Positions 2,246 to 47,471 are shown, numbered from the stretch's first letter. The stretch is DNA of 64,000 nt from Schizochytrium sp. TIO01 (GCA_004764695.1 SMSO01000032.1:3256483-3320482); one strand, 5' to 3'. The notes: generated by a model from the letters alone, not told the origin. Made by a program: numbers and translations.

Positions 2246-3247
2246 ATGGCAGACATGGAAAGCTCCGGCGATCTCCCCCCGTTGGTGGAGTCAGAGGTGC
2301 CTTTAGCGAAACCAGTAGGTTTGCTTCTTCGTCATGAGGAGGCGGACGACCGGGCTGTCAACGATGAAACGCAACACAGGGACGACAAAGATAACGATGA
2401 TGTGGCCAGGGTCGTCAAGCTTGTGCATCTGCAAGACCCCAAAGCTGGGGTTTTCTCTCAACAAAAGAAACAAGTAAGTCTACCTGGTTGGGAAAGCTGC
2501 TGCTGCATCGTCGCACAATATTAACTCACATTTGAAAACTTTCTCATCATTGACCTCAACCTTGTACAGTGTGACCTTTGGGAGTTTTTTTGGGGGACCT
2601 CACTTCTCACAGCAAGCTTTATCAATGCACTGGACCTTTCCAAGCTAAGTGTTCTTGAAATTGGTGGCGGCTCTGGGCTCTGCAGTCTTACCGCCAGTTT
2701 GAGCGGAGCGGATTCTGTACGCATGACCGATCTCGTGGAGGATGCATTGCGTGTCTGTGCGCAAAGCGCAAAGGCCAACGAACTAGCCAATGTAAGCTTT
2801 GCAAAACTTGATTGGAATGATATGAACTCTGTTCCGGAAGAGGCCTACGACCTTGTGATTGCATCTGACGTCCTCTTTTATCGAGGTACTGTTAGTCCAG
2901 TGGCCCAGGTGTTTGCAAGAGCCCTCCGCCCCGGTGGCATTGGTCTTCTAACGGACCCATGCCGCTGTAATACGGATGACTTTATCTCTAAACTGGACGA
3001 TCTTGGGATTGTTGCAGAGACACATCTTTTTCGTCCAGAGATGCTCGCGCGAGGACGCGACCTTGGGCCAAAGGCTTTTGTAAATGTGAAAAAGGTCAAA
3101 CTTATTGTATTCTCCAAACCTAGCTCTAACGAAAGGTTGCAACAGCTGTCCGATCTAGACGAGCAAATTAAGGCTGCTTTACCTGGATTCACACGACCAG
3201 AAATTGAGGTTGAGATGGAAGCACTTGGGCTTGCAATAAACTCTTAA
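2246..3247 (+). CDS. Class I SAM-dependent protein methyltransferase, family 16 (METTL21/EFM-like); 2 exons 2246-2473 and 2570-3247
   Basis: Joining the exons across a phase-0 intron gives ...SQQKKQ|CDLWEFFWGTSLL...VLEIGGGSGLCSL (motif I)...VRMTD...LDW...YDLVIASDVLFY (DxxY motif typical of MTase family 16). Confidence 0.85.
2474..2569 (+). other. Spliceosomal intron (96 nt)
   Basis: Donor GTAAGT at 2474, acceptor ...CTTGTACAG ending at 2569, branch-like TTGAC shortly upstream. Removal fuses two ORFs in frame and skips a stop. Confidence 0.85.
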
Positions 3248-4424
3248 TACTAAGGTTGCAAACTATGCAATCGGTTTATGATGTGCCTATCCTGCCGAAG
3301 CGATGACTAGCAAGATGTGTTTCTTTGCATCACTTTCCTCATATCAACTTTGTTACGTATATTAAAGATTTGGATGAACCTTTCTTGCAACATCCTAGTT
3401 ATGATTATTACAAGTGACTTTTCTTTCTGAATCTCGAAATGTGTTGTGCCGCCACTCAGCAACAGTTTAAAATCCTGTTGAGACTGGGTCATTACACCTT
3501 TTGTACTCCGAATGAGAACGACTCAGTTCACCATGATACTGTTTCTTCATCATGACTGGATTCTCTTCAAAACCTTCAATCTGCTTACTATATAGCCAGC
3601 GTAAGCTTCCTCCAAGCCCACTCTGATGTGTAGTAATAATATGTGTTTATACCCTAGCAGGAGTGCTGCCTGAAACTTCTAGACATCAGGTAGTTGGGAC
3701 CTAAATACCTTCTACATGTGCCTCCAAAATGCTGATCTTCTTGACAATAACTCGAAGTATAGGGCGTAATAGTTATTGTTATCTGAGTTTCAATGGCTGC
3801 AGTTAAGCGCTTTGGTAGCTACAAAGCAGTAGAGTTAGTTTTGCGGCCCTTCAGAATCAGCCTAAGCTTAAAAGAAGTGCACACTTTCCGGGGTTGAGGT
3901 ACCTTTTTAGACCTGCACGCGCTGGACACTATTACTATTAGTAATACACAAATACAGAAGCCTATCCTTTTTTTAATTTTTTTTTTTTTTTCCCCGAAAC
4001 AAACTCAGTCAGAGTCTCGTCAGTAGCTGCTGTCTGCATTGGCATGTGCTTTCGCTGCATCATAGCGTGCAGGCTTCGAGTGTTTTTGGCATACTCCACA
4101 CTGCTTCGCAGTTGTATTTTCTAGTCTAAAACATTGAAAGAAACTACTAATTTGTTATTAAAAAAATAGAAATACTTTTTTAGAAATAAAAAGGAAAGAT
4201 AACTCAAAAGACAGAATTAGAAGGCACGAGCATCAACAGCCAGGCACCCCCGCTTGATTGATGGAGAACCAAACATCATTCTGTGGATTGGGTCCGAAGC
4301 AATTACCCCCCCAGGGTCGAGAAGCAAAACCTCTTTGATTTCTACAGGAGGTGGGGGCGTGGTCACAGGGCAAGGTGGATCGCTGGTTACACCGTTGCCT
4401 CTAGAGTTGCTCAACGAAGGAGTG

Positions 4425-7400
4425 ATGGTGCAGCTAAAGAAGCTCCTCTGCAGGCCTATGGCCTTGCGTGGAGCAAGTGATGAAAACCCAAGTATTAAGC
4501 TGCCGGAGGGATCTCCATCAACGAGTGAGTCTCTCCAAGATGGTGATTGCAGACGTACCGTGTCGCAAGAGGTAGAGCAGGGCGCTGCCGGTGCTGTTTC
4601 AGGTTCTGCAAGAAATAGCAGAGATTCACAGACGAGTCGAAGATCAACATTTAAGGCAGCCCTACAGAACGTACTCGTACAGGGTGCCGCACAATTGAGT
4701 CGAAAATCAGGCCTAAAGAACACAGCTTCTAAACAGATATCTGGTAATGTCTGCAAGGTCTCACAACCTCTAGATAGTGACTTACTTCAAGAATGGATCG
4801 ACGAAGCCAAAAATGACAAGCTTGAAATGAAAGAAAGAACTACTGCGGTCGCACGACTCTATGCGCTTTTCGAAGAGATTGAAAAGATAGATAAAAACTC
4901 CAGTGTTTCAGAACAACAGAGCTACTTCAACATTGCTCTCGAAAGAGTTGCCCCCCCTTTGTTAGATGATCTCGTTAAAGCGGCTATCCTGGGGAAACTT
5001 CAAGGCCGTCTGGCACAGATTGGCCTAGCAAAGATGCGTACGCTAGGTAGTCTTGACTTGGTGGACTCTATTTGTGGTTGGAATGATGCTACAGAAGTCG
5101 CTGAGTGGTTGACACGAGCAATTGGTTTTGACATGAGCAATTCTGAACTCAGCGAGTTTCCACCTGTGAAACATATGCCATGCACTGTAAACCTTAGTGA
5201 CTGTCCTAAACTATTAAGTTTGGGCTCGTCGCTTCAATTCGTGGACGGAAGTCTGGACCTTAGCGATAACACTGGACTACAAGATCTGGGCAACCTTGAA
5301 AAGGTTGGAGGGGACCTTGAGCTCTACAATTGCATCTCCCTAGAGAGCTTATCTGGGAATCTGATTGTTAGCCGTGACCTAATGTTGGAAGGTTGCGAAA
5401 GGCTACAATCTGTTGGTCCCCAGATAAGCTGCGACGGATATTTTAATGTACTAGAATGCTCTCAGTTGGAATCAGTACATCTTCAAAACATTGGCAAATG
5501 GATGAGCAAGACACCATCTGTTATTACGAACTTACGTATCTATATTACAATAAAAACCCTTCTCGACGAGAATTGCACGGGAGCAGATTTATCTAATGCG
5601 TTTAGCGAATTGAATATTGGACATGAATCTTTGCGAACCGCATTAGAGGATCTGGCTGAGACTCAAATTGGCAGCGCTCTGTTGGACACGAGCAGGTGTG
5701 ACGAGTTTCTTGACTGCCTTACTACAGAGGTTGATGTAACAGAGTCGTTACGAGCTGCTATGCAAAAAGTATACGCTACTGTAAAGCGTGTTCTGGACCA
5801 AAATACTCTCAACACGAATTCTACACTTGATCCAACTTGTGGCTTCAAATCGTTAACACATCTTGTTCTTGAGAGCTGTTCTGATTTGTTAATTTCCAAA
5901 ATGGAAGTGCTACAGGAGTTGAAGGTTCTATGCGTTTCCGGCGTTCTGCAAATAGTCGAATGCCCAGAACTGAGATCTGCTACGATAATAGCCGCCCCGG
6001 CCCCACCCGAGATCGTAGAGCCTCTCTCTTCTGACGAGAATAAGGTGGATGCTAGCCTGGATCTACGAGAGCTTGTGTCGTTAGAAAAAGTAGACATTTC
6101 AGGCACTTGGATGAATGCTGAGATAAGGAAATGTTCTGTTCTTACCAAGCTGGAAAGTGACATCGTTCTCAGAGGAAATTTGGGACTCTCATATTGCCCT
6201 AAGCTCACCTCTCTGAATGGTCTGGAGATAAGAGGAAATTTATCCATGTCGTTTCTAGAGTCTTTGACAAAGTGCAACGTGAAGGGGAAGCTATCGGAGG
6301 TTTCTTTAACCAACTGTTTGAACTTGGTACATTGTGATGTTGAGGAGTGTAAAAACTTCTCGGCATGGGGATGCTCAGCTTTGTCTAAATTCAGCGATTC
6401 AATGTACGTTGAAGAAAAACTAACCATGATTCAGTCCGGAGCCGTTCATTTGATGTTGCCTCAAGCTGAGGCAATTGAAATAAATGATAGTTCAATTGTT
6501 TCTATCGAATGTCCGATGGTTAAAAAGTTGGTTGTCACGTTTTGCCCTGGGCTGAAGTCAGCATGTCTCAGCAACAATGTAAAACCGCGTCTAAAATCAC
6601 AAAATGAAGAAGAAGAAGAAGACATTGATGAGATGCCACACATGGAGAAATTGAAATTCGAAAACTGCTATGAACTCACGCATATTTCTTTCGTTGGAGC
6701 TGAGACGACAACTGTGGATGATTTAGAACTCTCCGAGAATGATAGGCTAGAGGAAATTGAACTTGTCGACACCAACCTAGTTGTGGGGAAGCTCAGTCTC
6801 TCCTCAGTCGCTAATCTAACTCAACTTTCGGAGATGAGAGTCGAAGACCTCCGAATTGTAAGATGTCCTGGTATCGAAACGTTAGCTAGTCTCGAGCAAG
6901 TGGATATACTATATCTCGAAGATTGCTCTCAGCTGGTTGAGCTATGTTCGTTTTCAGGCACATGCGAAATCATCAATTGTCCAGCCCTGAAATCACTTCC
7001 TTCAAATTGCCATGCTGACGAGCTAACAATTTGTCAATGTAGGCTTCTTTCGGAATTGCCAAGTGATCTTTCAGTTGATATCGACCTCTCCATTTCATCT
7101 TGCGATGAGTTGCTCTCGATACCAGAAAATGTCAGGCCTCAAGGAAAGTTAGAAATTGTGAGATGCTCATCTTTACAATCTCTGCCTCGCAGCATTTCTG
7201 CAACTCAGGTTCATTTACGGATGTGTAGCTCTATAAATGATGTCTCGGCACTTGTGGGTGCTGAACTGCAGGTATTATCTATTAATGGGTGCCATGCTCT
7301 CACGTCACTTCCTGACGGAATTCATACTAGTACCTCCTTTCGCATAACGAGCTGCAACGCTGTGGAGCGATTGCCAAATGGCCTTCACTCTGGACAGGTC

Positions 7401-9113
7401 GAAATCTCAAAATGCCCGTTGCTAGCTGGTATTGGTTCTCCTGGACAAGGGCAAATTTCGACAATGATTATCGAAGAGTGCAATCGTTTGGAAAATATTC
7501 CAATGGAGTACTCTGAACATGTTACGAAGCTAGTCATTCGAAAATGCGAGAATTTTCATCAATTACCTTCTGGCTTCATCGCAAATCATATCGTAATAGA
7601 CCATTGTGGAAGTTTTGAGGAACTTTCACCTTTAGGAAAGAATCCGGCATGTCTTGAGATCACCTCATGTTTGAATTTCCTTACACTACCTCAGAGCTTG
7701 CATGTAAACGGACCTCTCTTACTTCATGACTGTGTTCGCCTTGAGACTCTCCCTGAGGACCTCTACGCGACTGTGCTAGATCTTTCGCGTTGCACCAACG
7801 TTCAGCATCTGCCTGATTGTGTGCTTCATTGGAGCGAGAACCTAGAAGAGTCTAGAAATCCCGTAAGGGTCCTGGCTCGTCGGGTCTCTCGTTTATCTCA
7901 ACGAATGTCCCTCACGAGACGGAGCGACCTGGTTACCCCTTCCCCGGGCGAGCCATATTCGGTTATTGTTGGAGAATCTGGTATTCAAGAGAATGATGAT
8001 GAGCTATCAAGAATTTCAGAGTATGCCACACCGCTCTTTCGCATTGATCTCCGCGCAAGTAACATATCTGCATCGGAACGACGTTTCAGTCTGGCCAATG
8101 CTACATCATCAACCATGGAGCTTTTCCTTTTCGGCCCAACAAGAAGAAGCACCCTGGACTCAGAAGATGATGATGAATACCAAGAGGATTTCCAAGAAAT
8201 CGATATGCCACGCGATCTGGAAGGAGCTATTACATATTGGAAATCACGAATTCTTGAGGAGGTTCCGGATGCTGGACAGTTCATTGTAGCCGATGTTGTG
8301 AAAGCAGTTCCAGAAACTTATACGTTTGGTGTCATCGAGTTCCTCTCAGTAATACATTTAGCCAAGGAACTTAAAAATGAGACACTTCGTCCTGGTCTTC
8401 TCACACGTCTTGCAGAGGTTTTAGAGCTCTTGGCCACTACTGAAGAAAGTGATGTTAGGGAAGCAATTTGCATTCGTATGTCAGATAGCTCTGATGCATG
8501 TGGCGATAAGCCCATATGGGCTTTGAATCAAATGTATCAGCATGTTCTGATTGTCCAGGCTCGGGGCGATCGAGGAAAGCTCTTTGCGCTAGGAAAACGT
8601 TTAATGCGACTTGACGTCGTGCATCACTACATCCGTAAATTTATTGAGGAAGAGCTTCCAGATGGCGACGAAGTCTCTATTTATCTTCGCTTCGAAATTG
8701 CTTTACGAGACACTTTGGATTTGCCAGTGTCTGCAAAATCTATGCTGTTCCCAGACATCGTTGTTATACCAGATGACAATATCAGGGAAGCAGAAGACGC
8801 CGCTCTCGCAATTACTGAGACAGAATACGAACATTGGCTAGAGAGTTGGGAGGAGTGGCAACGCCAGATTCGTTCCGAGCAAGCTGCGACGCTTGACTTA
8901 AAATCACTTTCACGAAATAGTCTCAAGCGTGTTTCCCTATCATGGCAAACACTAATTGGGACTCAGATTGAAGACCCTGTACGTCTTTTGCCTAGTCGTG
9001 ATATAGTGAGTCTACAAGAGTTACTTCGCCACTGGGTGGAGACGGGCAATGATTATTTTAGCATTCCACGAACCTTCGAGTATCTGGAAAACAATCTTAC
9101 TCGTTGCATCTGA
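4425..9113 (+). CDS. LRR-NEL E3 ubiquitin ligase (IpaH/SspH/SlrP-type NEL domain) with C-terminal U-box-like segment
   Basis: Uninterrupted ORF (open from 4254; in-frame ATGs at 4425 and 4458). Many LxIxxCxxLxxLP repeats at ~5184-5490 and ~5850-7830. NEL signature EFLSVI...VREAICIRMSDSSDACGDKPIWALNQM...GKRLMRLDVV...DEVSIYLRFEIALRDTLDLPVSAKSMLF...WEEW at ~8210-8880, with the Cys codon at 8499-8501. Confidence 0.85.
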   Translation: MVQLKKLLCRPMALRGASDENPSIKLPEGSPSTSESLQDGDCRRTVSQEVEQGAAGAVSGSARNSRDSQTSRRSTFKAALQNVLVQGAAQLSRKSGLKNTASKQISGNVCKVSQPLDSDLLQEWIDEAKNDKLEMKERTTAVARLYALFEEIEKIDKNSSVSEQQSYFNIALERVAPPLLDDLVKAAILGKLQGRLAQIGLAKMRTLGSLDLVDSICGWNDATEVAEWLTRAIGFDMSNSELSEFPPVKHMPCTVNLSDCPKLLSLGSSLQFVDGSLDLSDNTGLQDLGNLEKVGGDLELYNCISLESLSGNLIVSRDLMLEGCERLQSVGPQISCDGYFNVLECSQLESVHLQNIGKWMSKTPSVITNLRIYITIKTLLDENCTGADLSNAFSELNIGHESLRTALEDLAETQIGSALLDTSRCDEFLDCLTTEVDVTESLRAAMQKVYATVKRVLDQNTLNTNSTLDPTCGFKSLTHLVLESCSDLLISKMEVLQELKVLCVSGVLQIVECPELRSATIIAAPAPPEIVEPLSSDENKVDASLDLRELVSLEKVDISGTWMNAEIRKCSVLTKLESDIVLRGNLGLSYCPKLTSLNGLEIRGNLSMSFLESLTKCNVKGKLSEVSLTNCLNLVHCDVEECKNFSAWGCSALSKFSDSMYVEEKLTMIQSGAVHLMLPQAEAIEINDSSIVSIECPMVKKLVVTFCPGLKSACLSNNVKPRLKSQNEEEEEDIDEMPHMEKLKFENCYELTHISFVGAETTTVDDLELSENDRLEEIELVDTNLVVGKLSLSSVANLTQLSEMRVEDLRIVRCPGIETLASLEQVDILYLEDCSQLVELCSFSGTCEIINCPALKSLPSNCHADELTICQCRLLSELPSDLSVDIDLSISSCDELLSIPENVRPQGKLEIVRCSSLQSLPRSISATQVHLRMCSSINDVSALVGAELQVLSINGCHALTSLPDGIHTSTSFRITSCNAVERLPNGLHSGQVEISKCPLLAGIGSPGQGQISTMIIEECNRLENIPMEYSEHVTKLVIRKCENFHQLPSGFIANHIVIDHCGSFEELSPLGKNPACLEITSCLNFLTLPQSLHVNGPLLLHDCVRLETLPEDLYATVLDLSRCTNVQHLPDCVLHWSENLEESRNPVRVLARRVSRLSQRMSLTRRSDLVTPSPGEPYSVIVGESGIQENDDELSRISEYATPLFRIDLRASNISASERRFSLANATSSTMELFLFGPTRRSTLDSEDDDEYQEDFQEIDMPRDLEGAITYWKSRILEEVPDAGQFIVADVVKAVPETYTFGVIEFLSVIHLAKELKNETLRPGLLTRLAEVLELLATTEESDVREAICIRMSDSSDACGDKPIWALNQMYQHVLIVQARGDRGKLFALGKRLMRLDVVHHYIRKFIEEELPDGDEVSIYLRFEIALRDTLDLPVSAKSMLFPDIVVIPDDNIREAEDAALAITETEYEHWLESWEEWQRQIRSEQAATLDLKSLSRNSLKRVSLSWQTLIGTQIEDPVRLLPSRDIVSLQELLRHWVETGNDYFSIPRTFEYLENNLTRCI

Positions 9114-12100
9114 ATGAAAAATGAAAAATATGGGGGATTAAATTAGGGATGAGTTTTGTATAACAATAATTCTCGTATTCGTGAGAGGCCTATTTGCTGA
9201 GGACTTTTCAGCACATCAAGTAGGGATTTCTCATTCCTTCGAATAGCTGTTTTCTGCCGACTTGAATATAATTGATACCTTCATAGTCCGGTAGTTACCA
9301 TAGAAAGTTTGTCTCAATAAACACATTTTACACTGTTATTTCCCGCATAGAGTAGCTGTTGCTATGGAAGAAAAAAGTGCTGGACAGTCTCGATAAAATT
9401 TGCTCTCTGTATTAACCGACGACTCTGCTTTGCCTCTCCTGTGGTACTCCTCAAACTCCAAACTCATCGTGAATATTATAGTGCATAAAGTAGACTGGTT
9501 TGAAATTATGTTGCGATGTTGATTCAATTTCTCCATTTCATTTTGAATGTTTCACTGTGAGAGCGTGAGCTTCTACCTGGAGTTTGCTCATGCTCTCTGT
9601 AGCCAAATGCCAAGCAGTTGTTTCTGGTACTGTCGGATGGAAAGTTGCGTTGCATTCATCAATTAGTACAAAACCATATTTACCTTATCGTGAGTTATTC
9701 ACTTGAGCTCTGCCACCCGCCCAGAATATCTACTCAGTCAATCAAAGTTGCTACAGAGGTTATCTTTGGAAGACAGTGAGTAGAGAAGGAGCTTGCGATC
9801 GTGAAACAGTCTTTCGTGATAACCAATTGCATGTCTTCTAAATTTTAAACAACATTTCAGGTTCGCCAGCTTATGCAGTGCGACATCGTTGTAAGTGTAT
9901 CGATAGATATTCAAACGATAGATAGAAAATTATGACCATTCCTCCAAATCATCTCTGGAAGCTCCGAGTTGAGTTCATACGGAGATTTACAATTTAGCAA
10001 AAAAGCAATTACGAAAAGAAACCCCTTCTATTGAAACGTTCCGTTGTACCGCTACAGACGTTTCATGTATTTGAGGGACCCTTAAGTTACGGGGCTGGCT
10101 TTTCCCCTTGTCTCTCTCTAGAGAGCTGTGGGGATGGGAATCCGTGGCCGTGAATGGTGGTTGTTTTCAGAAAACGGCGCACGACTTCAGGGCGCAGGAA
10201 AAGCCGTCGCACAGAAAGAAAGCCCGCAAAATACGCACAGACCAGGAGAGGGAATCTCTGGCAAGGAATGCAAGCTTCACTTGTTGGAATAGTTTGGAGA
10301 AGCTTGATCATGGTCATTGAGAGTCTCGTGGACCTTGAAAGGTGCTAATCATCGCTAGCAGCGTTGCTGCTTTAAAAAAACAATGAATCTGTAAAATCGT
10401 GAAAGCCGCATCAAATGAATTGAGGGAAACTGAAGACGAAGGAACTAGAAGCGGTGCTGCAACCGATACTTTCTATTCTATGAGCAATTCAAGACTCTGC
10501 GCGTCACGTTTCCGCAAGCGGCCTGAGACCTGGGCCAGAGGAAGCGCGAGCTGAGCTATCTAAGCCGTTTGGACATGCGAGTCTGCCCATCAATCCTACA
10601 TCTATAGTCTGTAGTGTGGCATGAAGACTGCGACGAAGAGCAAAGAGTGTTTTAAGTTTGCAATAAAAGGTAGGTCCTTTTGATTAAGATTCAACTTTGA
10701 AACACTGAAGCATGAAAGTGGCAGGGACACAGGTTTCTCGCAAGCTTCAACTGCACAAGTGATAATCTTTTCATTCTTTGTCCGTTCAGACGAACGCAAA
10801 CACCTCATATTTTGCATTTGCATCGACAGCTTCTGAAATGCAAATTAGTATTTAAAAAAAAAATAATACGAAGCTTGTGGACCTGAGCTTTGGAGATCAT
10901 TCAAATGCAGATCGGGAGCCCTTGTAAACGGAGGGCAGCTTTCGTTCTAGTAGACATACCTGGGGATGTTTGTGCGACCTCGAAGCATGCAGATTGTACA
11001 TGACAATAGGCTGTGTCTACTTGTGTGCTTTGTGCAGGAGGAAGAATGGAGAAGGAGTTCTAGGTACTTCATTACATACAAATGGATTTATTTATTTACA
11101 ACAAGGAGAAAGAAAAAAAAAGAAAAAAAAAGAGAAGCTCCCTGGACGGGTGGTCTGTGTGGTTCTCTGAAGTCGCGATGACGGCAGCGCTATGAGGGCC
11201 TTTTGCGCAAGGGCAGGTGAGGAACAGTCCTAGCGGAAACCTTTCACTTATGCTACTACAGATAGAATCGGCACATCGTGCTCTCTCCTAGTTCCATCAC
11301 CGACAGTCGGTAAGTTTGCCACAGGTTCGGAATCTAGCGAAAGCAAGGTATTTATTTATTTGACGGTCCACTAAAAAAAATAATAGCATGTGATCGCATT
11401 GCACAATCGACTCTTCACATCTTCATGTTGTAGTATGCTCTCTTACAACCTTTGTGTAGACTCTCTCCGTTTCGTTTTGAACACCGACCAGTGAGACTGA
11501 GCGACTCTGCGACGCTGCGGCATCAAACGGACCAACAAGCTCTCTGCAACGCCCGCCCTCCTCGCCTCAACAATGGCTGGTTGGTTGTCTATGGTCGGTC
11601 AGCTCGTCGGTGCCGAAGAAAACACAGCCTCGCCATAGGACATAAAACGGAGTAGCACTCCTTTTTAAAATTTTAAAATTAAATAAAAGTTGATGAAAAC
11701 AAAGGGAAAAGGAAACTTTGTTGTGCCTCCCTGAAGGAAACACAACGTCTGCAGACAAATCTGAACGCCGCAGACTTGGAGACCAACTTTTTCTTTCCTC
11801 TGTTTTGCCTATTGTTAATTGAGATGAAGCTTCTCTTCGTTTCTTTTCACTTTTGAGGTTCGGTGACGCAATGAGCCAGCGAGTTTTAGTGTAAAAATAA
11901 ATGAAAGGTTTTTAGCTGAGGTTACGAAACATAAATAATATAGAAATTGCTCATTTTTTTAAAATTTTAAATTAGACAAATTGCACGTAATTAGTAGTTA
12001 GCTAGCTACTCTTTCGAGCGAATTAGCCATTACAGCACGACTTCCAGTACCGCCTGGACGAAGTCTAATCTGAATTTACAAGACGAAAACTAAGGCTATC

Positions 12101-15100
12101 TGGGATTCGAGGTTGATTTTTCAGACACATGCGAAAACAGGAAGGAAGTATGGTACTCGAATCTGAAGTCAACACGTCGCTTTCATAGTCTGATAAATGC
12201 ACAGCATCATACTTTGCAAAATTACGTGAGGAAAGAAAAGCTACTGAAGATAGTTCAAAATCGCAAAATGGGTGATCCGGAGACACAAAGAAGAGTTTTT
12301 GTTGCTTCTGGCTGCCACTCGTCTCACAATGACTGGTCTCGCTCTATTGAAAGGAGCTTTGTTTTCGCGCTGCAAGTCATAATCGAACCTCGCCAGAATC
12401 TCTCTTTCGAGTGTCTTTGGCTGTAGACATTCTCGGTTGATTAAAGACCTATGGTTATGGCGGTTCTTTAATGTTGATTTGGTTTGGATGTCTGGAATGG
12501 AATGCTTGCACCCCTTTATTTGAGCGAAACCTGTTACTATGTCCGATGTTAGTACATGTTTATAGTTTATACCACCAATATTAGGACCAAGTAGATCAAA
12601 TTTGACCACAAATAAAAGTTTCTTATTTTCTGCCGCTCAGACCAATCAGCTTCTTTCATGATATGGTTCATAGAAATAAATGCCTTATTCACATATCATT
12701 CTGATGATAAGGGGATTCAAGAGAACCGATTTTAGGTCATAGAGATCTCATTAAAAAATGAGGTCATCGTTTTCATTGTTCTTGTGATGTGGATAAGAAG
12801 GTTGGGTTGAGTCAACTTGGATAGTAATTGTATTAGCCTGTACTTCTCGCATCAACAAACTGATCATTCGCAAGCATCTGCCGTGAACCTTGTTTTCGTC
12901 GGGGTGGAGGTGTGGGGACCGCAAACCAACAGTGCCTAAAACAGGAAAAAAAAAAAAAAAAACTGAGAGGAAAAAGGAAGGAAGATGAGTATTATTCATG
13001 ACCTTTCTGTTTAAACTACCAATTATGTCTTAAAATTCAATATTTTAAATAGTTTCTTTTGTCAATCTTTGAAATGTAAAACATCTTGTACAACTTGATG
13101 GGTGTCATATTTACAGTCCCACAACTCTAACAAACACAACTTCAGAGTCGACCAGCCCATATTTAGCTTCTAATGTCAGAACTCCCTAGCGCGTGAATCT
13201 TCAGGCCTTGAAGTAAATATGAACATCGCTTGAATCTCTCTGTTTCGAACTGGACCAGATTATTTTTTTTCTCCCCTTTTTTGGTGAGGTAAGTCCTACC
13301 ACCCTTCTTTCGTTTACGAGATACATCACTCGCCCGTTCGCTTACATGTTCGGCAACAAACAACCATCTTGGCAGTGCCACATGTTGTTGTTCTTGTACA
13401 TCATGGCATTGAAAAAACTACTACCTAGTTCCATCCAATTAAAACATACAAAATATTGTTCGCCAGTTTTAGTTTCTCTTGGTCTTCTTGAAGTTAAGCA
13501 CGAACGCCTTGCTCGGTGCTGTTTTTGTTTTGCCTCTAGTTGAAGGTTTCTTTTTTTTTTTTTTGGCACACACCGTCATAGATTCATCAACTTTATAAAC
13601 CATGCATCGAAGCTCTTGCGCAATGTGTAGAACTCTACCATGCGTATACACAAAATTTTGCATTATATTCTCCTTGAATAGTCCTTCTGCTTACTGCCAC
13701 GCTAACACATACCTACTCATGCGGGGTCAGCCCTATCCTTCGACTCGCTGTATAACCTAGTGAGTTTCTTCAGTGCATGATACAGCAAGAAGAGAGGTTG
13801 ATCCATCAAGTGCTGCTTTTATCATGCTAACCCACGAATGAGAAGAATTTAGAAATGAAGTGCTACTCTAGCTAGTAATATACCTATTCCGTGCTGCTAG
13901 GGGGTTAGTAGTTTGGTAGCTAGTATTACCAAAAAAAGAGCTGTAGGGAGCGGGGCACGTGCAAGCATGCTGTGAGCACGCAAAGTCACGCTGATGATGT
14001 CCGTCATTATCTAAATAGAAAGTAATTTAAAACGAATGACTAACTAGATGCTCAGGTAGGAAGGTAGTTGGTTTTACTGCGTAGATAGTACCTACCTACT
14101 CCGCAGCCAACTACTTTTCGACAGCACTAGTCTTTTCGTCTCTTTAATAATCGACCCAGAAAGAACCCTGCGAGAAAACTTTAACAACATGGAGGCCCTG
14201 AAATAAAGAATGTATATATAGGCCTATACATATTTTAATTCATAACATTTAAATAACATTTTTCATTACTTAGGTAGCTACCATCCAATGGGGTTGGTCA
14301 ACTAACTGATCGACCATCTCGACCACCCTCCGCCTAGTCTTTTGCACCAAGCTGCTCCGCCGTGCACAGACTAGTGACTCTTTTCGTCGTTGTCACCTGT
14401 CTACAACAAGATCTCTGCAGGTACTCTAGAGGCATCGATCTTCTTTTCAACTTGGTTTGCTTTCTCGGCATGTGCGTTTTATGCCGATTCTAGAGCTGCT
14501 AGCCAGCCACCGTCAGCGACTTATTTACAGTGATAGGCGCCGTCACAGCATTTATTATAATATCTCTGTTCGAGCCTAGCGCACGTACGTGAGCCGAATG
14601 ATGATAACGAAGCGATGGAGAGCTTGAACGAGTCGTCACAAATGTGCATCCATATACGCCAAGCCGGAGAACTGAGCGGAATGTCGGATGGTGGCACCGC
14701 AAGACCTTCACCTCGAAGCTCCAGAGTTTCGAGGTAAATCTGCTCGCATTGCGAACTTTAAAGTTGCTCCTGCCTCGCCAACATTTGCTGCCCCGAGAAG
14801 TTGAAGTTGAATATCGTCGTGGAGATTAAAACATATATGTAGGAGTGAATCAGGTGGAGCCCTTCGCTATGGTGAAGACAGTACCTGCATATCTCGTGCA
14901 TAACAGCAAATGGACAGCTTCAAGGTCTAATAAGGACTCACTCATTGCCATAGAAAAGAAAGTTTGGGTGCAAGAGAAGTTGTGATTGGAAGAACCGTCG
15001 CGAACTGCCGCGCGCCTCTTCACGGCCGGTAAAAGAACACCCTCGCACCACGCGCTCCTCTTTGATAGCTGAGGTGAATAGTTTTTTATTTTTTTAAAAA

Positions 15101-19033: not shown

Positions 19034-20746
19034 ATGTCCTTCGAGGATGTCTTTGTGCTGCAGGTGGCGCCTGTGCTTGGCGCAGTCGTCACAGAGCTCC
19101 TGTACCTGGGACCCATTATGTCCATCCTGCAGGCTCGCAAGAACCGCACTCTTGATGCGCTCAACCCGATCCTCTTTGCAGTCACTGCCCCGCAAGCATT
19201 GCAGTGGACTGTATACGGAGCGATGAAAGACAACGTTTACCTTGTCTTGGGTTCGCTCTTTGGCATCGTCCTTGGTCTTTTCTACTTTGGCACCTGCCTC
19301 CGCTACGCCAAGACCGATGTGGAGGTGATGCGCATGGAGCTCATTTTCCTCGGGCAGTTCACCGTCACTGCCATCATCTGCGTGGTGCGGCTTTTCGCTC
19401 CCGCTGTTGGCCTTCAAATCGCTGGTTTGTACAGCATGATCGCCTCCCTTGTGTTGTACATTTCCCCGCTCATTAACATTCGTCGCATTATTCTTACCCG
19501 CGACGCGTCCACCATTAACCGTGGATTCCTCATCATGCAGATTGCCAATGGATTTCTCTGGACGCTTTACTCCTTCTTTGCATTTGATGTCTTTGTTCTC
19601 ATCCCTAGTGCCATGAGTTTCCTTACCGGTGCCATCCAGGGACTTCTCGTTTTGATCTTTCGCAACTCTAAGCCTATTGCTCCTCCTGATATCGAGATCG
19701 CTCAGCCCGAGTCTGCCACCCCGGAGAAGCCCCAAGGCACCTTCTTTGGAAGTTGCTACCGTCCTCCTTCTGCATGCCAGCGTCTTTCTCGCGCCGAGTC
19801 CGCTCCGTTTCAGCCTTCTCCCGATACTGATGCAACCAACTCTGACACCATGGCCATGCAACTCTGCGGAACTTACGCAGACGTGGCCGGCCCAACCGTG
19901 AACGCAAGTGTAGATGTAAACGCAATGGATGCTGTGCAGCACGCCCCAGTTGCCATGCAAATGTCTGGCTTGACTTCTGGTGTACCTGAGACTGTTCCGG
20001 AGACCACCATTGCCACTATGGGCTCCCCTTCTGCAGGTCCTATGAACATGGTCTCCCCACGTATGGCACCTGTAAGCCTAAACATGGCTTCTCCGCACAT
20101 GGCTCCTGTAAACACCAGCGCTAGATCTTCTCCTGCTATCACCCCAATGAGTGCTCTCGGACTGAACGCCCCGGCACTCTCCCTCAACGGCCCCGCCCCT
20201 GCCCAGGAGACAGTCTTCAACCGCCTTGCTCGTTACTCCAGCTCCAGCAACAACTACGAAGCCGTGCCGACGATCCAGCAGCAGCAGGAGCAGCACCAGC
20301 AGCAGCTCGAGGAGACCACCGCTTACGTGCCGCCTCCTGTTGCCCCAGAGGCCTTGGCTGTGGACCACTCGAACATCATCATGGACAACATCCCTCTAGG
20401 CACCGCAACTGAGCCGCACTACGTTAATGCCGCCGAGACATATCACCCGCTCAGCCCTGTCACTGACACTAACCAGTACATTGAGACTGCTCAGACTTAC
20501 ACTGTACCTGAAGCTACTCATGCCCCTGCCGAGTTCCTAAGTGCCAGCACCGAGACATACCCAATGAGCACGGAGACGACCTTTGTTGGAGCTGCTGAGA
20601 CTCCATTTGTGGGAGCTGCCGAGTCCATGGCTGAGCCTCTTATTCACCAGGTTGAGGAACACCAAGTTCAAGGTGAGGATAACTCCGAGGCAGTTGATGC
20701 CAAGACCGTCGACGCCAAGACTTACACCTCTAGCTCTGGATTTTAA
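19034..20746 (+). CDS. SWEET/MtN3-saliva family 7-TM transporter, copy 1, with ~360 aa low-complexity C-terminal tail
   Basis: TM1 LYLGP, QWTVYG, LYISPLINIRRIILTRDASTIN, NGFLWTLYS, DVFVLIP match the two MtN3 repeats. Tail is Pro/Ala/Thr/Glu-rich with polyQ. Confidence 0.9.
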   Translation: MSFEDVFVLQVAPVLGAVVTELLYLGPIMSILQARKNRTLDALNPILFAVTAPQALQWTVYGAMKDNVYLVLGSLFGIVLGLFYFGTCLRYAKTDVEVMRMELIFLGQFTVTAIICVVRLFAPAVGLQIAGLYSMIASLVLYISPLINIRRIILTRDASTINRGFLIMQIANGFLWTLYSFFAFDVFVLIPSAMSFLTGAIQGLLVLIFRNSKPIAPPDIEIAQPESATPEKPQGTFFGSCYRPPSACQRLSRAESAPFQPSPDTDATNSDTMAMQLCGTYADVAGPTVNASVDVNAMDAVQHAPVAMQMSGLTSGVPETVPETTIATMGSPSAGPMNMVSPRMAPVSLNMASPHMAPVNTSARSSPAITPMSALGLNAPALSLNGPAPAQETVFNRLARYSSSSNNYEAVPTIQQQQEQHQQQLEETTAYVPPPVAPEALAVDHSNIIMDNIPLGTATEPHYVNAAETYHPLSPVTDTNQYIETAQTYTVPEATHAPAEFLSASTETYPMSTETTFVGAAETPFVGAAESMAEPLIHQVEEHQVQGEDNSEAVDAKTVDAKTYTSSSGF

Positions 20747-24561: not shown

Positions 24562-25482
24562 ATGACGAGCAGCGGCGTTGATTTCTTCGTTCATACGTTC
24601 GCGCCGATTGGCGGAACGGTGATTACGAATTTGCTTAACCTTGGGCCGATGTATGCAGTGATTGAAGCACGACGGAAAGGGCGTCTTGGGAGCCTCGACC
24701 CTGTCCTTTTCTCAATGACACTCTCGCAGTCTGTGGTTTGGGTCGTCTATGGCATCTTTGCAACCAACATTTACTACGTGCTTGGGTCAATCTTTGGCGT
24801 TTATCTTAGTATATTCTATCTATTGACTTCGATGCAGCTTGGTCCGAGCAAGTCCCAGTATCAGAAGATTGAAATCTTCGTGTTGTTTTGGATTGGATTG
24901 ATCATTATCTTCAGCGTCATTGGTCTCTGGCTCCATAATGTGGCATACCAGGCAGCAGGTTTGATGAGCCTTCTTACATCTTGTTCACTCTATGGTGTGC
25001 CATTTCTCAACATTCGAAACATTCTGTTGACTCGAGATGCCTCGTCAATCAACCGGGGCTTTCTTTCGATGCAGTTCCTTTCTGGTGTCATGTGGACTTC
25101 ATATAGCTACTTCAACTTTGATATTTATGTCCTTATACCGAGTCTCGTAAGTCTCCTGTTTGGCATTATTCAACTCGTGCTCGTGATTATTTTTCCTCGC
25201 AAGAAAGCACCAGAAGAAACTACGGAGAGTGTTCTGCCACAGACCACCAAGGAGGACTGTATACTTCCTTGCAGCCGACCACTACTTTGCAGTCCTAGTT
25301 TTGAGTCGGAAAACCAGCAGGAATTGGATCTTAGACCCAACGCAGATGCTCCAAATGGCCAACTGGCAGATGGAGATGTGTCTGACATCCGGATCATTAC
25401 TGTCCCCACCCCTGAAGAAGGACATAGAGACGCTGAAGTTCCCTCATCGTCGAAGTATGAAAACGCATTTCCTCCGCTGTGA
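24562..25482 (+). CDS. SWEET/MtN3 family transporter, copy 2
   Basis: LNLGPMYAV, SLDPVLF, VWVVYG, YGVPFLNIRNILLTRDASSINRGFL, GVMWTSYS, DIYVLIPS; clear paralogue of copy 1. Confidence 0.9.
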   Translation: MTSSGVDFFVHTFAPIGGTVITNLLNLGPMYAVIEARRKGRLGSLDPVLFSMTLSQSVVWVVYGIFATNIYYVLGSIFGVYLSIFYLLTSMQLGPSKSQYQKIEIFVLFWIGLIIIFSVIGLWLHNVAYQAAGLMSLLTSCSLYGVPFLNIRNILLTRDASSINRGFLSMQFLSGVMWTSYSYFNFDIYVLIPSLVSLLFGIIQLVLVIIFPRKKAPEETTESVLPQTTKEDCILPCSRPLLCSPSFESENQQELDLRPNADAPNGQLADGDVSDIRIITVPTPEEGHRDAEVPSSSKYENAFPPL

Positions 25483-28983: not shown

Positions 28984-31071
28984 TGAGGTTAGTGTTATTT
29001 TAAAAGTATCAAATTTGAGAAGAGAATAGACGTGCTCTCGTTGCACTCATTCAATCGCTGATTCACTCGTTCGTTCATCTGCGTGCCAAACTCTGTTGCA
29101 AACAGATAGATGTTTGCAAATAGCACATCGCAGAGTCTAGGGCCCAAGCACCCTGGTACACAGGCTCCTGAAACGCCGAAGTTTCCCTCTGCAGCAAATT
29201 ATTGCCTGTCCGGCCATTGCAGACAGAAAATACAGAACGCAAGAAGTCTTGGTTTTGTCCTTTCTCCTTCTCTTTATTATTTTCACTAATTAAATAAAAG
29301 AAAATTAAACATTTTATTGAACTAACTATACTCCGACTTGTTAGTTGTCTCTACAGGCGAGCACATGTAGCTTTAGGGACAGGGTTACACAGGTTGACCA
29401 CCATCTCTGTGGGAATGAGAAATACGGAAGAATAACTGAAAAAAAGGGAATTCTGAGCTGTTGAGGAGACGCCTGCAAAAGTGAAAGGGTATTTTAAATG
29501 AATCAGTGAGTGAATGAATAAATCGCGGAACAAGAGTGTTGAAAGAACTTGAGAGTGAAGAGAGAAATAAATTGATTCGAAACTAAATCATGCTTTGCAG
29601 CACCCGTTCGCCGATCGATTCGTGACCGAGTCCTACGCGATTATGGAATATTGAACAACATTCTCAACTAAATTGAAAGGCAAATTGTCACGCGTTGAAG
29701 ATGCTTTCTCCTAAGACCATTTAGCTTGCGTTTGTCTATAGACGCTGCTTATGTGATAATGAATTGGGTTTAATCAATTTCATGAGTGGAATGAAACGAA
29801 CAAGTACTTTGAAAGCTTAAAAACAATCAAGACACAACAAGTGATTGTCTCGATGGGTGGTGATAAATGCAGACTCTTGGACTGGAGATGTCGAGAGTAC
29901 CTGCGTCGTCCTCTCAGACTTGGCGTCAGCACAGAGATCACGATGACTCAAGCGCTTGATGGTATCGAGACAGTTGCAATGCTACAAAAAGTTCTAGGCG
30001 GTATCAGCTATTGGAGCTTCAAGTTGACGACCACGACATCATTCATGCTAAGCAAAGGGTAATTCTAAGACCAGATCAATTTAGAGTTCTTCTTAAATGT
30101 TGAATAACGCAGATATGGCACAGCAAGTTGTCAACAACGAAAGAGCGAATGACAGACAGAGTAGGTACTACTAATATCTAATAACTAGTACCTGCGAGCA
30201 AAAGGGAATGTTCGATGGCTGCTGCGCTCGTTTCACCCACTGTAATAATAAACTATCGGCACCTGAGCTTTTAGAATTCGTTCGAGCCAGTGGAGCGTTA
30301 GGTTGTATTTGGACTGCACGAATCCAGCAATGTCTTGCACAAGACAATCAATTCGGTAAGTTTTGTGAGCAGGCTTCTAGGAAACCAAAAAGTACGGCAA
30401 AAATGAGCAGTGAACAATCTATAGACATCGTTTCTTGACCTGACCTATTTCTCCGTCTAAAAACAGCCTGCACTCCGACATAAATGATAAATCTCCCAGC
30501 AAAAATGTTTTCTTTCTTTCTATCATACTACCTGCATTATATTAGTTACGAATAAAACTAAACCAAAAAAAATATTTAGAAGATAAAAACTTAAAAAAAA
30601 AATAGTATTCCTTTGTTTGGGAAAGGAACTCTTTCCATTATTTTTAATATTTTCTTTAAAGGTGAGGAGAAGTGAAGAGGATAGAGAAAAGAAGAGAAAA
30701 AAGTGTTAGACTGCCCCGACTACCAGTACGTTGAAAATTAATAAAGGAGGAGGCGCGCGACGAGTGGTGGAATAAAGCCAATTCCATGCACCTTATTCTT
30801 TGACTTGGGCATATATATTAAGCGCAAACTCTTCATGTAGTAGAGTATATAGAGCTCGCTTTTACTTCTACTATAGTAAAACTTGCTTTGTGCTAACTTG
30901 TGATATCTTAAGTAATGGCTACAGTTCGTAGTAATGACACTTACCTACCAATCTGACTACAGCACCAAAGCAATTCAGATTTGAGCAGCAAACACCCAAC
31001 TCTGCTCAGACGAGGATAGACATTTGAACAAAGGTCTTTGCAAACACTTGACAGTTCAAACTACAAGCAAG

Positions 31072-32352
31072 ATGAGCGACGGAGGCGAATTCTTCACAGG
31101 CACTGTCGCCCCCATTGCCGGTGTGATCATCACCGAGCTGCTGCACTTTGGTCCAATGTATGCAGTGATTTGTGCCCGCAAACAAGGCCGCCTTGGATCT
31201 CTCGACCCGGTTCTTTTTGCCAATACCACGCCGCAAGCTGTTGTGTGGACTATTTATGGCATTTTTTGCAACAATATTTACTACATCATTGGGTCGATTG
31301 GAGGCATTCTCATGGGAACCTTTTACCTTCTCTCTGCTCTGCAGCTTGGCGTCACCAAGACGCAAATGCGACGAATTGAAATTATTCTCCTCACCCAGCT
31401 TACACTGATCATTACTTTCTCAACCGTGGGCTGGTGGCACCGAGAGGTTGCTAAGCAAGCAACGGGTGTGCTTAGCATGCTTGCTTCATGCTTTAGCTAT
31501 TCAACCCCTTTCCTCAATCTTCGCCTGATGATTAAAGCGCGGGATGCATCTTCCATCAACAAGGGTTTCTTGTTCATGCAGATTGTGTCTGGTGTCATGT
31601 GGACTTCTTACTCTCTCTTTGACTTTGATATTTACGTCATCATCCCCAGTGTCATCAGTCTGGCCTTCGGTATCATTCAAGCCACCCTCGTTGTTATCTT
31701 CTGGAAACCAGCTAGCAAGACTGAAGAGGTAGACAACAAGAGCTCCTCACTCCTGGATAATGTTCGTGGCTGCTACCAAGCGCCAAACTGCTTCCGTCCA
31801 TGCAAGTCTCGCGGCCAGCAAAACTCATGCAACGCATCTCAAGCTATGTCTAACAATATGGAGGCAACTCGTTTCACTAGTTTCCCTGCAGACAGCTCCC
31901 AAAGCGATGTCATCCTCGACATTTCGGGTTCGACCTGTATGGAACAGCATGCTAAGAACGAAGTGCCTGCTATTGGTTATTGCGTAAAGGGTCTTGATCC
32001 TCTACTTTCAGACCCGGCAGAGTCCAGCACTCCTTCGACCAGCAGCCTTGAGAGCACCAGCCCGATTGGTACGACTTCCTCGATCGAACTCAACCCGATC
32101 GAGAGTAGCTCCAACTTGGTTGCTGACACTTCTAGCTTTCCTCTTCAGAGCCAAACATCATTTGATGCAGAGCCGCAGACTTCGTTTGCTACGCCGCCCC
32201 CTGGAGTACTTGAACCTGTTGATCCTATTTTCCAAGCAATATACCCCATCGTTACTTCGGACCAGCAGCAAAATCTCAACAATGAGGGCACCTCTAGTAC
32301 TAACCTTGGTAAATCTGACATTCATGCATCCAACACGCTATCTTCGATTTAG
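31072..32352 (+). CDS. SWEET/MtN3 family transporter, copy 3
   Basis: ATG at 31072 (MSDGGEFF, matching the paralogue N-termini). HFGPMYAV, SLDPVLF, VWTIYG, RDASSINKGFL, DIYVIIPS; Ser/Thr-rich tail. Confidence 0.9.
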   Translation: MSDGGEFFTGTVAPIAGVIITELLHFGPMYAVICARKQGRLGSLDPVLFANTTPQAVVWTIYGIFCNNIYYIIGSIGGILMGTFYLLSALQLGVTKTQMRRIEIILLTQLTLIITFSTVGWWHREVAKQATGVLSMLASCFSYSTPFLNLRLMIKARDASSINKGFLFMQIVSGVMWTSYSLFDFDIYVIIPSVISLAFGIIQATLVVIFWKPASKTEEVDNKSSSLLDNVRGCYQAPNCFRPCKSRGQQNSCNASQAMSNNMEATRFTSFPADSSQSDVILDISGSTCMEQHAKNEVPAIGYCVKGLDPLLSDPAESSTPSTSSLESTSPIGTTSSIELNPIESSSNLVADTSSFPLQSQTSFDAEPQTSFATPPPGVLEPVDPIFQAIYPIVTSDQQQNLNNEGTSSTNLGKSDIHASNTLSSI

Positions 32353-35573: not shown

Positions 35574-37137
35574 GAAATCCAAGTTCAGGGTCAAGATCCG
35601 ATACGGAAAGGATAGGTAGGTGCTTATTGACCTACTTATTTACTTGCTTGGTCTTCTGCCTTACCTATTGTCTGCCTGCGGGGTACAGAAGCGGTCGCTT
35701 TGACTGATGGGTTTACCGCCTACACGATCTTCTTCTTTGATCTTTTAAACCAAAAGAAGAAGAAGAAGAGAGCAAAATTCGATCAACCGAAATCGCAGTT
35801 GCTCTCTTGTCAGGTAGGCGGTAATCTTCAACGAGCGAGACTGAGAATTAATTCCCTCTTCGGGTGTGATTGTGAAACTTTTGGATGGCGATACGGATGG
35901 CACCACCTCCATGTTTATAGATTGTTTATAAATTTTAATTTAATTTAATTTATAATTTAAAATAATAAAACTAAAAAGTAAATACTAATGACATGGCCAA
36001 AAGACGGCGATGGGTGCGTATGCGTCAGCCGAAAGATAAAGAAAGTCAGCCTTGCGCTGACTGTACTGCCGCTGCCACGAAAGTTTTTGCGAAAAAAAAA
36101 AACAAGGTTGCGGTTTCCGTTGCGTGCTAGACGCATCAATAAGCTATTGAGCGACTAGAACCAACACTCTCGCAGCAAACTTCATAGATATGTAGGGCCG
36201 AGGTAATTCGCTCTTTTCTTCTTTCTCTTATAGTTATACACATGTAAATATTATTTTTAAAAAATGTTTTTCAATTTCTAAAATAGAAAATTAAACAAAG
36301 AGACATATTCAGTTTTTATTTATCTTATTAAATAATAATGAAAAGGCAAGTTTGAAGAATACAATATCTGCACTAGTACCGTCAATTATTTTTGTCTAGG
36401 ATCTGCTTTTGCACTGATTTCGATTCTGACGGGATGAATATCAGACAAACAAATCCTATTTGTGCTCGAGGCGACAGCATCTGCCGTTGGATCCATCTAT
36501 CGGCTGTCATAACCAACAAGTCCTTCGCTACGTCCTGCTCGTCGTCGTGCGTGCTCTCGAGAGGAAGCAGTAGCAGATAGATACGTAAGTCTTCAGCGAA
36601 GAACGCGAAGTTCTAAAGAACAGAACCTTTAGGTGATAAAGAAAAGGCAGCATAGAGAAGCTTTTGTGCGGCCGTGCTTTAGAATTTTAACTTTTCACGA
36701 AAAGGTTTGGAAAAAAAGAAAAGAAAAGAAAAAAAGACGTAGTGCAGTAAGAGGTGGGTAAGTGCAATTAAGGGTTCCGCTTCGTTGTATGACCTGGGTT
36801 AGATTGTAGTGCAATTCCTCTTTGGACCGCGTGAGAGAACGGCCTTGGCGGGGCCTGGCTCTACAAGCCCGTGGTGTCCAAGTTCTGTTCTTGCACTATT
36901 CCTGTCTTTGCCAAACCTCGATCGCTCGTCTGTGAGCTTGACAAACTAGTTGCACGGAGACCAACAGATCAGCCAGCGACTGGTCGAAGGTCAACGCTTG
37001 CTTGGTTGCTTGGTTGACTTGGAAGGCAAGCAAGCAAACAAGCAACGAGGACTGAAGAACACGGGGCTCAACTTTGATTATTGCAAAAGACCATCGTTTG
37101 CATTTGCGTCTGTATTTGCATTTTTTGTGCTGGGACG

Positions 37138-38268
37138 ATGGAGGCACACTCAGGGAGCATGTCCACCTTGGACATTTTCGTGATCCGGGTCGCACCGATC
37201 GCAGGAGTGGTTGTCTCGACGCTTCTGCACCTCGGTCCGATGCACGCTGTGCTGAAAGCAAGGCGAACGGGTAAACTCTCAGGCGTGGACCCTTTGCTTT
37301 TCGCGCTGTCTACTCCACAAGCTACGATTTGGTGCGTTTACGGGTGCTTGATAAATAATGCGTACTATCTTTTAGGATGCATTGGCGGCGTGCTCCTCGG
37401 CACCTTCTACTTGATGTCTGTGATGCAGCTTGTAGAAAGCAAGTCTATGGCCAGGAAAATGGAGGTTGTTCTCCTAAGCCAGTTGGTTCTGACTGCATGC
37501 ATTGCAATTACCAGCATGTTCGATAAAGCCATCGCAACGCAAGCTGCTGGTATGGATTGCCTGATCACATCACTCATCCTCTCAGGACAGCCACTAGCGA
37601 ATGTTCGCACAATTATAATTACCAGAGACGCATCCATGATCAACAAAGGGTTTCTCTGTATGCAAATTCTTTCAGGGTGTCTCTGGACAATCTACTCTAT
37701 CTTTGACTTTGATGTATTTGTCATCATCCCAAGTCTGGCTAGCTTTGTCTTAGGCATCTTGCAGCTGTCTGTAATTTTCCTATTCCACAGGAGACAGCCG
37801 CACCAGCCGGAGGATGTTTTATCTCTCGAAGACAACTCCCTGCACACGCCCCTGGCGTGCTCCGTAGACACCTGTTATCAGCCCCCCGCTTCTTACGCAG
37901 GTGAATCGGCGGCAAACCTTCCGACAGCGAGTTGTATCAATCTTACACTTGATAAGCTTAGCTCACCATCTCCACGTCTGAACGCAATGCGCAACGTGGA
38001 CGCAGCCACATCACCTGGGTTTTTCTGTTCCCCGCCTTCTCCTGGATTATTCTGTTCTCCCCCGATGTCAGAATCTTTCCAACGCTCTGGAGACTTCAAT
38101 TCCGAGTTAAGCCTTCGATCCGATATCGACACTGGCAATGATGTCATTCCCAACGATGTTGTCCCCATTATGATTCTCGAGCCATCTGATATGCTGCATT
38201 TGCAATCCCAGCATCTCCTGCTTGAAGAATCCCACGCAGCTACATCCTCGAACACCGCTCTTGCATGA
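37138..38268 (+). CDS. SWEET/MtN3 family transporter, copy 4 (start 37138 or 37159)
   Basis: HLGPMHAV, GVDPLLF, IWCVYG, TRDASMINKGFL, GCLWTIYS, DVFVIIPS. MSTLDIFV at 37159 aligns with MSFEDVFV of copy 1. Confidence 0.9.
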   Translation: MEAHSGSMSTLDIFVIRVAPIAGVVVSTLLHLGPMHAVLKARRTGKLSGVDPLLFALSTPQATIWCVYGCLINNAYYLLGCIGGVLLGTFYLMSVMQLVESKSMARKMEVVLLSQLVLTACIAITSMFDKAIATQAAGMDCLITSLILSGQPLANVRTIIITRDASMINKGFLCMQILSGCLWTIYSIFDFDVFVIIPSLASFVLGILQLSVIFLFHRRQPHQPEDVLSLEDNSLHTPLACSVDTCYQPPASYAGESAANLPTASCINLTLDKLSSPSPRLNAMRNVDAATSPGFFCSPPSPGLFCSPPMSESFQRSGDFNSELSLRSDIDTGNDVIPNDVVPIMILEPSDMLHLQSQHLLLEESHAATSSNTALA

Positions 38269-47010: not shown

Positions 47011-47471
47011 GCGTCCAAACAACTGTTCTACTGATCTATTCCTACCAATTTCTCGCCTTCAAATGTGGATTTTATTGTAAAAGAAGAATGTTATCCGCAC
47101 ACCGAGCGATCACTGCATACTTTTCCTGCAAAACACATCCCACTCAACAGGGGAGAGATACCTGTAAACCTGCCAATGAAAAACTGGCTGATATTGTTCT
47201 TGATAGCGATTAAAATTAAGTAAAAAATCAGCCTTCTATATCTACGCTTTTTCTTGGAGCAACATACGTTCCTATTTCGACCAAGTCGGAAGCACACGTT
47301 TATGTATTAACTTTGTACACAAACAATGTCATCACCATTTTGGTCTACCCACTTGCAAGAACGTTTGTACTTTAATATTAAAATACATATGTCTATAATT
47401 CCCTATTCTAATGACCAAAATTGAAGGATTTGCAAATCCTCACGAACCTCTGTAGCAATTTGTTTGTAACC

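Follow-up and report, generated by a model that had tools for sequence, protein, structure and literature searches.

The window, by which we mean the whole stretch of 64,000 nucleotides from Schizochytrium sp. TIO01 that was analysed, carries at positions 4425-9113 (+ strand) an intronless gene of 1562 codons, counted from the first ATG, which encodes leucine-rich repeats (LRRs), a NEL catalytic core and a C-terminal module with a predicted U-box fold. The open reading frame (ORF) called by the tool spans 4254-9113, starts with a TTG at 4254 and contains 1619 codons; residue numbers throughout are counted from this TTG and not from the ATG at 4425. The ATG coincides with the start of the closest homologue, the Hondaea protein P0003, and in run X15 a base is missing at 4306, ahead of the ATG, which suggests that the 57-codon TTG extension (4254-4425) is probably outside the protein. 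Within 4425-4460, both this protein and P0003 open with a short hydrophobic/basic stretch with a Cys at position 9, which we liken to that of SspH2 and take as a possible lipid-anchoring site.

The gene lies in a gene-sparse window together with eukaryotic genes. Five ORFs for MtN3/SWEET sugar transporters, all on one strand and spread over 28 kb (19034-20746, 24562-25482, 31024-32352, 37081-38268 and 45754-47010), form an apparent tandem family. Other ORFs encode a Questin-oxidase-like protein (514-1740), a TPR protein (47421-49136), a CLASP_N/HEAT protein (49446-51536), an LRR protein (52275-53627) and a CAP-Gly+LRR protein (54490-56874), the last of which is presumably tubulin-cofactor-E-like. 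A 23.6-kb contig from another run covered positions 2500-12500 in one piece and without a listed joint, and contigs from runs X1, X5 and X15, run contigs being assigned to RNA by guess only, crossed the gene and the module with no joint and no indel in the module. The GC3 of the gene was 0.41, in a window where values ranged from 0.36 to 0.61. The closest named relative was the thraustochytrid Hondaea fermentalgiana, with 60% identity across the region and at least four named paralogues.

The LRR region is long and degenerate, with repeats visible in the translation from about position 5100 to about 7900 (+ strand). Pfam placed LRR_EndoS at residues 790-861 with an E-value of 5.6e-5, under its cut-off, and a family profile search matched the LRRs of IpaH as well as those of plant NLRs. 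By analogy with IpaH/SspH, the region likely binds the substrate. Among the strain differences listed (40 of 76), all seven within the LRR part 5649-5803 were nonsynonymous; four of the six listed in the NEL and linker were silent, and none of those listed (40 of 76) fell in the U-box. This pattern hints that the sensing (LRR) region may be under diversifying selection.

The NEL catalytic core (Pfam PF14496) occupies residues 1362-1545 (8337-8888, + strand) and was recognised by Pfam, sequence and fold matches. The Pfam match covered profile positions 31-222 of 223 (E 1.1e-21, 77.7 bits against a cut-off of 24), matches to IpaH, SspH and SlrP sequences reached an E-value of 4.5e-13, and in the predicted model the core matched SspH1 by VIA with a Z score of 12.5, NEL structures also ranking first in a Foldseek search. 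The protein shares with the IpaH/SspH/SlrP ligases the LRR-NEL order, the helical catalytic core and the Cys-x-Asp loop, which is found at Cys1416-x-Asp1418 (8499-8507, + strand) and aligns to the C-E-D motif of IpaH. The NCBIfam IpaH model gave 43.7 bits against a cut-off of 550, and the SlrP and SspH2 cut-offs were also missed by far.

Relatives of the protein were labelled eukaryote-type or bacteria-type; since few of them are named, most were assigned by the type of their tail and their place in the tree. Counting only rows without a gap at this position, 52 of 53 eukaryote-type and 41 of 41 bacteria-type sequences kept the catalytic Cys; among the labelled rows, all 79 eukaryote-type and 65 of 66 bacteria-type ones had the Cys-x-Asp pair. 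The first-pass annotation, made from the sequence alone, had proposed a hybrid with both a U-box-like domain and a catalytic Cys, with which this conservation agrees. A short linker (8889-8933, + strand) leads from the last NEL helix to the U-box; nowhere else in the C-terminal half does the pLDDT fall as low (82-86). It carries an aromatic-x-x-Leu-Pro motif common to both groups, which is degenerate in the window copy.

The U-box-fold module was delimited by profile comparison and predicted fold to residues 1561-1619 (8934-9110, + strand). Positions 8943-9110 make up the 56 final codons (WQTLIG...NLTRCI) before the TGA at 9111-9113, in frame with the ORF. The earlier reading of a U-box-like module placed directly after the NEL was borne out, as the module adjoins a complete Pfam NEL in frame, and its description of both flanking CP motifs as degenerate was right. 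Landmarks of the module are Leu1567 in loop 1, DPV at 1574-1576, a beta-hairpin, a helix with Trp1594, Gly1598-x-Asp1600, and Ser1603 in the linchpin column. When the module alone was compared with Pfam, no family was obtained at E 0.1. It aligned unbroken in 12 of 12 rows, consisting of the window protein and 11 homologues.

The 290-residue NEL+module region was modelled by AlphaFold2 with a pLDDT of 93.5 from an alignment of 102 rows, 41 of them bacteria-type, and each ten-residue block from model residue 241 onward had a pLDDT of 94-97. A single-sequence model of the last 82 residues reached a pLDDT of 51 and was discarded. In the model, the module consists of a loop, a beta-hairpin (246-257), a helix (258-268), a loop and a helix. 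Foldseek matched it to the Prp19 U-box (2bay; probability 0.99, TM-score 0.70 on the target, rmsd 2.7 A over 61 columns) and to the U-boxes of E4A/E4B (probability 0.75-0.95), although with weak E-values for U-boxes (0.38 and above). In VIA, UBE4B, Ufd2 and two spliceosome chains matched model residues 232-290, while the SP-RINGs of Siz1, Siz2 and PIAS3 matched residues 213-290, with Z scores of 4.5-5.3, a range that VIA calls common, and rmsd values of 2.1-3.0. The module is thus predicted to have a U-box fold, RING-like and without zinc ligands, and the U-box-like fold and RING-like topology anticipated in the first annotation are those of the model. The likeness to U-box proteins (Prp19, UBE4A/UBE4B/Ufd2, LubX; PF04564) and SP-RINGs comprises this zinc-free topology, with an rmsd of 2.1-2.7 A over 53-61 residues of the predicted model, and the PV-hairpin-aromatic helix-G pattern.

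Sequence profiles gave a comparison of their own. A hidden Markov model built from 57 bacteria-type tails, without any eukaryote-type row, scored the window tail at 19.7 bits against a maximum of 6.9 for 1000 shuffles, and 85 of 86 other eukaryote-type tails also beat this shuffle maximum; the likeness of the module to bacteria-type tails is, at the sequence level, above chance. Eukaryote-type tails follow the pattern hydrophobe-x-G, DPV, helix W (92%), T-G-x-D and N (84%), and bacteria-type tails show the textbook C-x-I, PV, Y, W/Y and G-x-x-P. By hhalign, the two tail profiles matched each other with 98.3% probability (E 1.3e-14), and with 94.4% when ten locus tails collected independently were used instead. 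Against the PDB, bacterial tail profiles found the U-boxes of LubX and Prp19 (E 1.4e-4 and 5.8e-4; E 2.9e-5 with a second profile), whereas the eukaryote-type profile alone found no U-box at E 10. Pfam U-box matched one of the 57 bacteria-type proteins (E 0.02, 15.5 bits against a cut-off of 21.4). Unlike PF04564 domains, then, the module is under the Pfam cut-off and linked in sequence to U-boxes only by an indirect profile chain. The proteins P0088 and P0134 carry canonical U-boxes.

Of the positions which we take to be U-box E2 contacts (loop-1 hydrophobe, helix aromatic, loop-2 Pro and linchpin), the window copy retains the first two, as Leu1567 and Trp1594, and has lost the Pro. The loop-1 position was L/F/V/M in 95% of eukaryote-type and I/L/F in 99% of bacteria-type tails, and the helix aromatic was W/Y in 98% and 97%. 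The eukaryote-type module differs from U-boxes in that neither the first Cys nor the loop-2 Pro has been kept: the latter is P in 89% of bacterial tails and L/F in 88% of eukaryote-type tails. At the linchpin column, 84% of eukaryote-type tails have Asn and 46% of bacterial tails have Arg; the window copy has Ser. According to work on RBR ligases, a weak linchpin would suit transfer to cysteine rather than to lysine. Such a linchpin is also compatible with a decayed U-box.

The border between the core and the module coincides with a known border in NELs. In the available text on SspH1, the catalytic domain covers residues 405-622 and is followed by a helical E2~Ub-binding thumb of 75 residues (623-697), a C-terminal two-helix element and the one part of NELs for which E2~Ub binding is described there (PMC12506513). 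Sequence similarity to IpaH ended at query residue 214, about SspH1 622 (query 204 corresponding to SspH1 613 with the 160-residue offset of the crystal construct), and 76 query residues follow. The model contains no thumb helices or long helical hairpin between the NEL core and the module. Because the similarity ends at the thumb border and the module matches the thumb in length, the module would take the place of the thumb; on the evidence of the alignment and the predicted model, the helical thumb is replaced by a U-box-fold module, which sets the protein apart from the IpaH/SspH type. When the best NEL match in each of 30 genomes of one small-genome phylum was considered, seven had a U-box tail, 23 a charged non-U-box tail and none had both; from their composition, we infer that the 23 non-U-box tails are helical. 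It had been suggested beforehand that the module sits where IpaH-type ligases have their helical E2-binding region, which holds, and that it replaced or supplements the bacterial module: replacement stands, and supplementation is rejected on the model and on the sampled NELs.

The NEL-U-box pairing is common to more than 100 relatives, in protists and in host-dependent bacteria. A full-library search with the 290-residue NEL+module query returned 485 representatives at E 0.001, the best 150 of which were examined. Together with further search matches and bacterial genome loci, these 150 gave 176 rows with a long NEL match: 79 eukaryote-type, 66 bacteria-type, 25 without the module and six too short. 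Fourteen rows with a short or split NEL match were dropped, including P0139, which has a non-U-box tail. Viral loci searched for the pair returned none, and among the 25 plasmid records listed, of 167 with NEL matches, none covered 80% of the NEL+U-box query. P0107, deposited under Acer saccharum (maple), groups with bacteria-type rows and P0007, deposited under Durusdinium trenchii, with Hondaea rows; both may derive from co-assembled organisms.

On the bacterial side, P0153, in which a NEL is joined to a more canonical U-box, has bacterial genes as neighbours in a 1.8-Mb assembly named 'uncultured Verrucomicrobiae'. Three NEL-U-box genes stand in tandem in a 1.8-Mb bacterial assembly (L001:2931-8669), one of them without C-x-D by pattern search and with the U-box kept. 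In the phylum of one small genome (G001), NEL was found in 74 of 300 genomes, with up to nine matches each, while the available parts of NEL reviews name only proteobacterial hosts. The FHIPEP (SctV/FlhA) export-gate protein was present in five of five tested bacterial genomes with U-box NELs and Chlam_OMP6 in two of the five. The small genomes, the export gate and Chlam_OMP6 suggest that the bacterial carriers are chlamydia-like symbionts.

The same pair in chlamydia-like bacterial genomes rules out a fusion private to the eukaryote of the window. The implication of the first-pass annotation that the fusion was specific to the eukaryote, or built with a U-box of the host, is not supported: the bacterial pairs are more canonical, and the eukaryote-type tails are homologous to the bacterial tails and find no eukaryotic U-boxes by themselves. 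In a tree computed on NEL columns alone, with 85 rows subsampled from 170 labelled rows (six short-tail rows left out) and with a sampling that did not include Shigella/Salmonella NELs, a 95/99 branch set the U-box NELs apart from the others, and eukaryote-type rows grouped together with 91/89; other trees were similar. Monophyly of the bacterial U-box group was not rejected (p-AU 0.46), and the nesting of the eukaryotes within bacterial U-box NELs was therefore dropped as an established result. That the U-box is more canonical in bacteria and that the outgroups without a U-box are bacterial both speak for a bacterial fusion with later transfer to a protist lineage. We infer a single origin of the NEL-U-box pair in host-dependent bacteria and its later gene transfer into a thraustochytrid-like lineage, in which the unit would have expanded and been combined with ARM, SPRY, TPR/kinase or SAM regions. 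In 29 eukaryote-type proteins scanned, the unit occurred with LRR, ARM, SPRY, TPR+kinase or SAM. Whereas the IpaH/SspH ligases are bacterial type III effectors, the window copy stands among eukaryotic nuclear genes.

Regarding function, the predicted U-box would bind a ubiquitin-loaded E2 and present it to the NEL core, ubiquitin would pass from the E2 to Cys1416, and Cys1416 would hand it on to a substrate held by the LRRs. We regard this relay, drawn by analogy with RBR and RCR ligases, as probable. The thumb, the described E2~Ub-binding part, is absent from the protein and yet the cysteine is conserved, so the U-box most likely supplies E2 binding. In the RCR ligase MYCBP2, a RING-bound E2 transfers ubiquitin to the catalytic cysteine of the ligase, as given in the available text (PMC9527308). 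Against the relay count the loss of the loop-2 Pro in eukaryotic copies and a best sequence match to a U-box that does not bind E2, LubX U-box 2, which matched bacterial tails with 18.2 bits compared with 6.5 bits for U-box 1 and is described in the available part of a review as binding substrate and not E2 (PMC13720258).

These two observations, together with the lost first Cys, the Ser in the linchpin column of the window copy and a top fold match to a Prp19 U-box dimer structure, could mean that in the eukaryotic lineage the fold has been kept without E2 binding, as a surface for substrate, ubiquitin or self-association like LubX U-box 2, the E2 being reached through another surface or partner. 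We consider this unlikely, as the thumb is absent but Cys-x-Asp is present in every eukaryote-type row, so that some E2-binding part is needed, and the Trp/Tyr and the loop-1 hydrophobe persist in 95-98% of tails. Somewhat more doubtful still is that the U-box acts as an ordinary RING-type activator through which the E2 passes ubiquitin directly to substrate lysines, with the NEL cysteine as a second, parallel or regulatory route in a dual-mode ligase. The Arg and Asn frequencies of the linchpin column would fit such a role, Arg, Lys or Asn being the usual activating residues in the available text of PMC4822130, as would the one bacteria-type row of 66 that keeps the U-box without C-x-D. A near-invariant cysteine would however be unexpected if it were dispensable, the window copy has Ser, and more than half of the bacterial tails have no Arg in this column. 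Bacterial contamination or a chimeric assembly as the source of the gene, or a U-box likeness that is a prediction artefact, is largely refuted and very improbable. In favour of such a reading are the bacterial type of the gene and its lack of introns, the doubtful records behind some relatives, such as P0107 under maple, and a good model that drew on bacteria-type rows where the single-sequence model was poor, but the neighbours are eukaryotic, one contig of another run spans the locus, GC3 is inside the window range, paralogues are named from Hondaea and the shuffle test is independent of structure prediction.

The relay reading places the protein beside the RBR/RCR ligases without making it one of them. 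With RBR, RCR (MYCBP2) and RZ (RNF213) ligases it would share the proposed E2-to-cysteine logic, whereas its catalytic domain is an all-helical NEL, N-terminal to the RING-like domain and without a zinc-binding motif. The Pfam scan at E 0.1 gave no zinc-binding RING2, tandem-cysteine or RZ catalytic domain, and the searches run gave no homology of the catalytic domain to those of RBR/RCR/RZ ligases; the NEL-U-box protein is an analogue and not a member of these classes. It also differs from U-box ligases, described in the available part of PMC13720258 as allosteric E2 activators, in that the module is fused to a catalytic-Cys domain. The same part of this October 2026 review treats NEL ligases as one class and RING/U-box ligases as another, and says that for HECT, RBR, RCR and RZ ligases no counterpart in bacteria has been identified (PMC13720258). 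A NEL-U-box family would join the NEL and RING/U-box classes in one polypeptide.

Taken as a whole, we give about even chances to the broader proposal that NEL-U-box proteins are an undescribed RING-plus-cysteine transthiolating class, put together in chlamydia-like and other host-dependent bacteria when a NEL core captured a U-box, as a bacterial counterpart in logic to RBR/RCR ligases, and that a protist lineage adopted the effector, which grew there into a ligase family of its own with exchangeable sensing domains, possibly for defence. A full-text literature search returned no description of a NEL-U-box fusion or of a thraustochytrid NEL (most subscription papers, supplements and domain-architecture databases were outside its scope, so an earlier mention is possible), and the available text on green-algal NLR-like genes mentions NEL-like domains and contains no 'U-box' (PMC7145615). 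An effector class held to be 'bacteria-only' here forms an expanded family in a eukaryote, and the exchange of thumb for U-box shows the NEL core to be modular. Uptake of ubiquitin from E2 by a NEL had not been captured structurally, as far as the available text states (PMC12506513). With a U-box of an E2-docking geometry known from many structures in place of the flexible thumb, this step of NELs becomes directly testable. In nearly all members the U-box escapes Pfam, a possible reason why the pairing has been overlooked.
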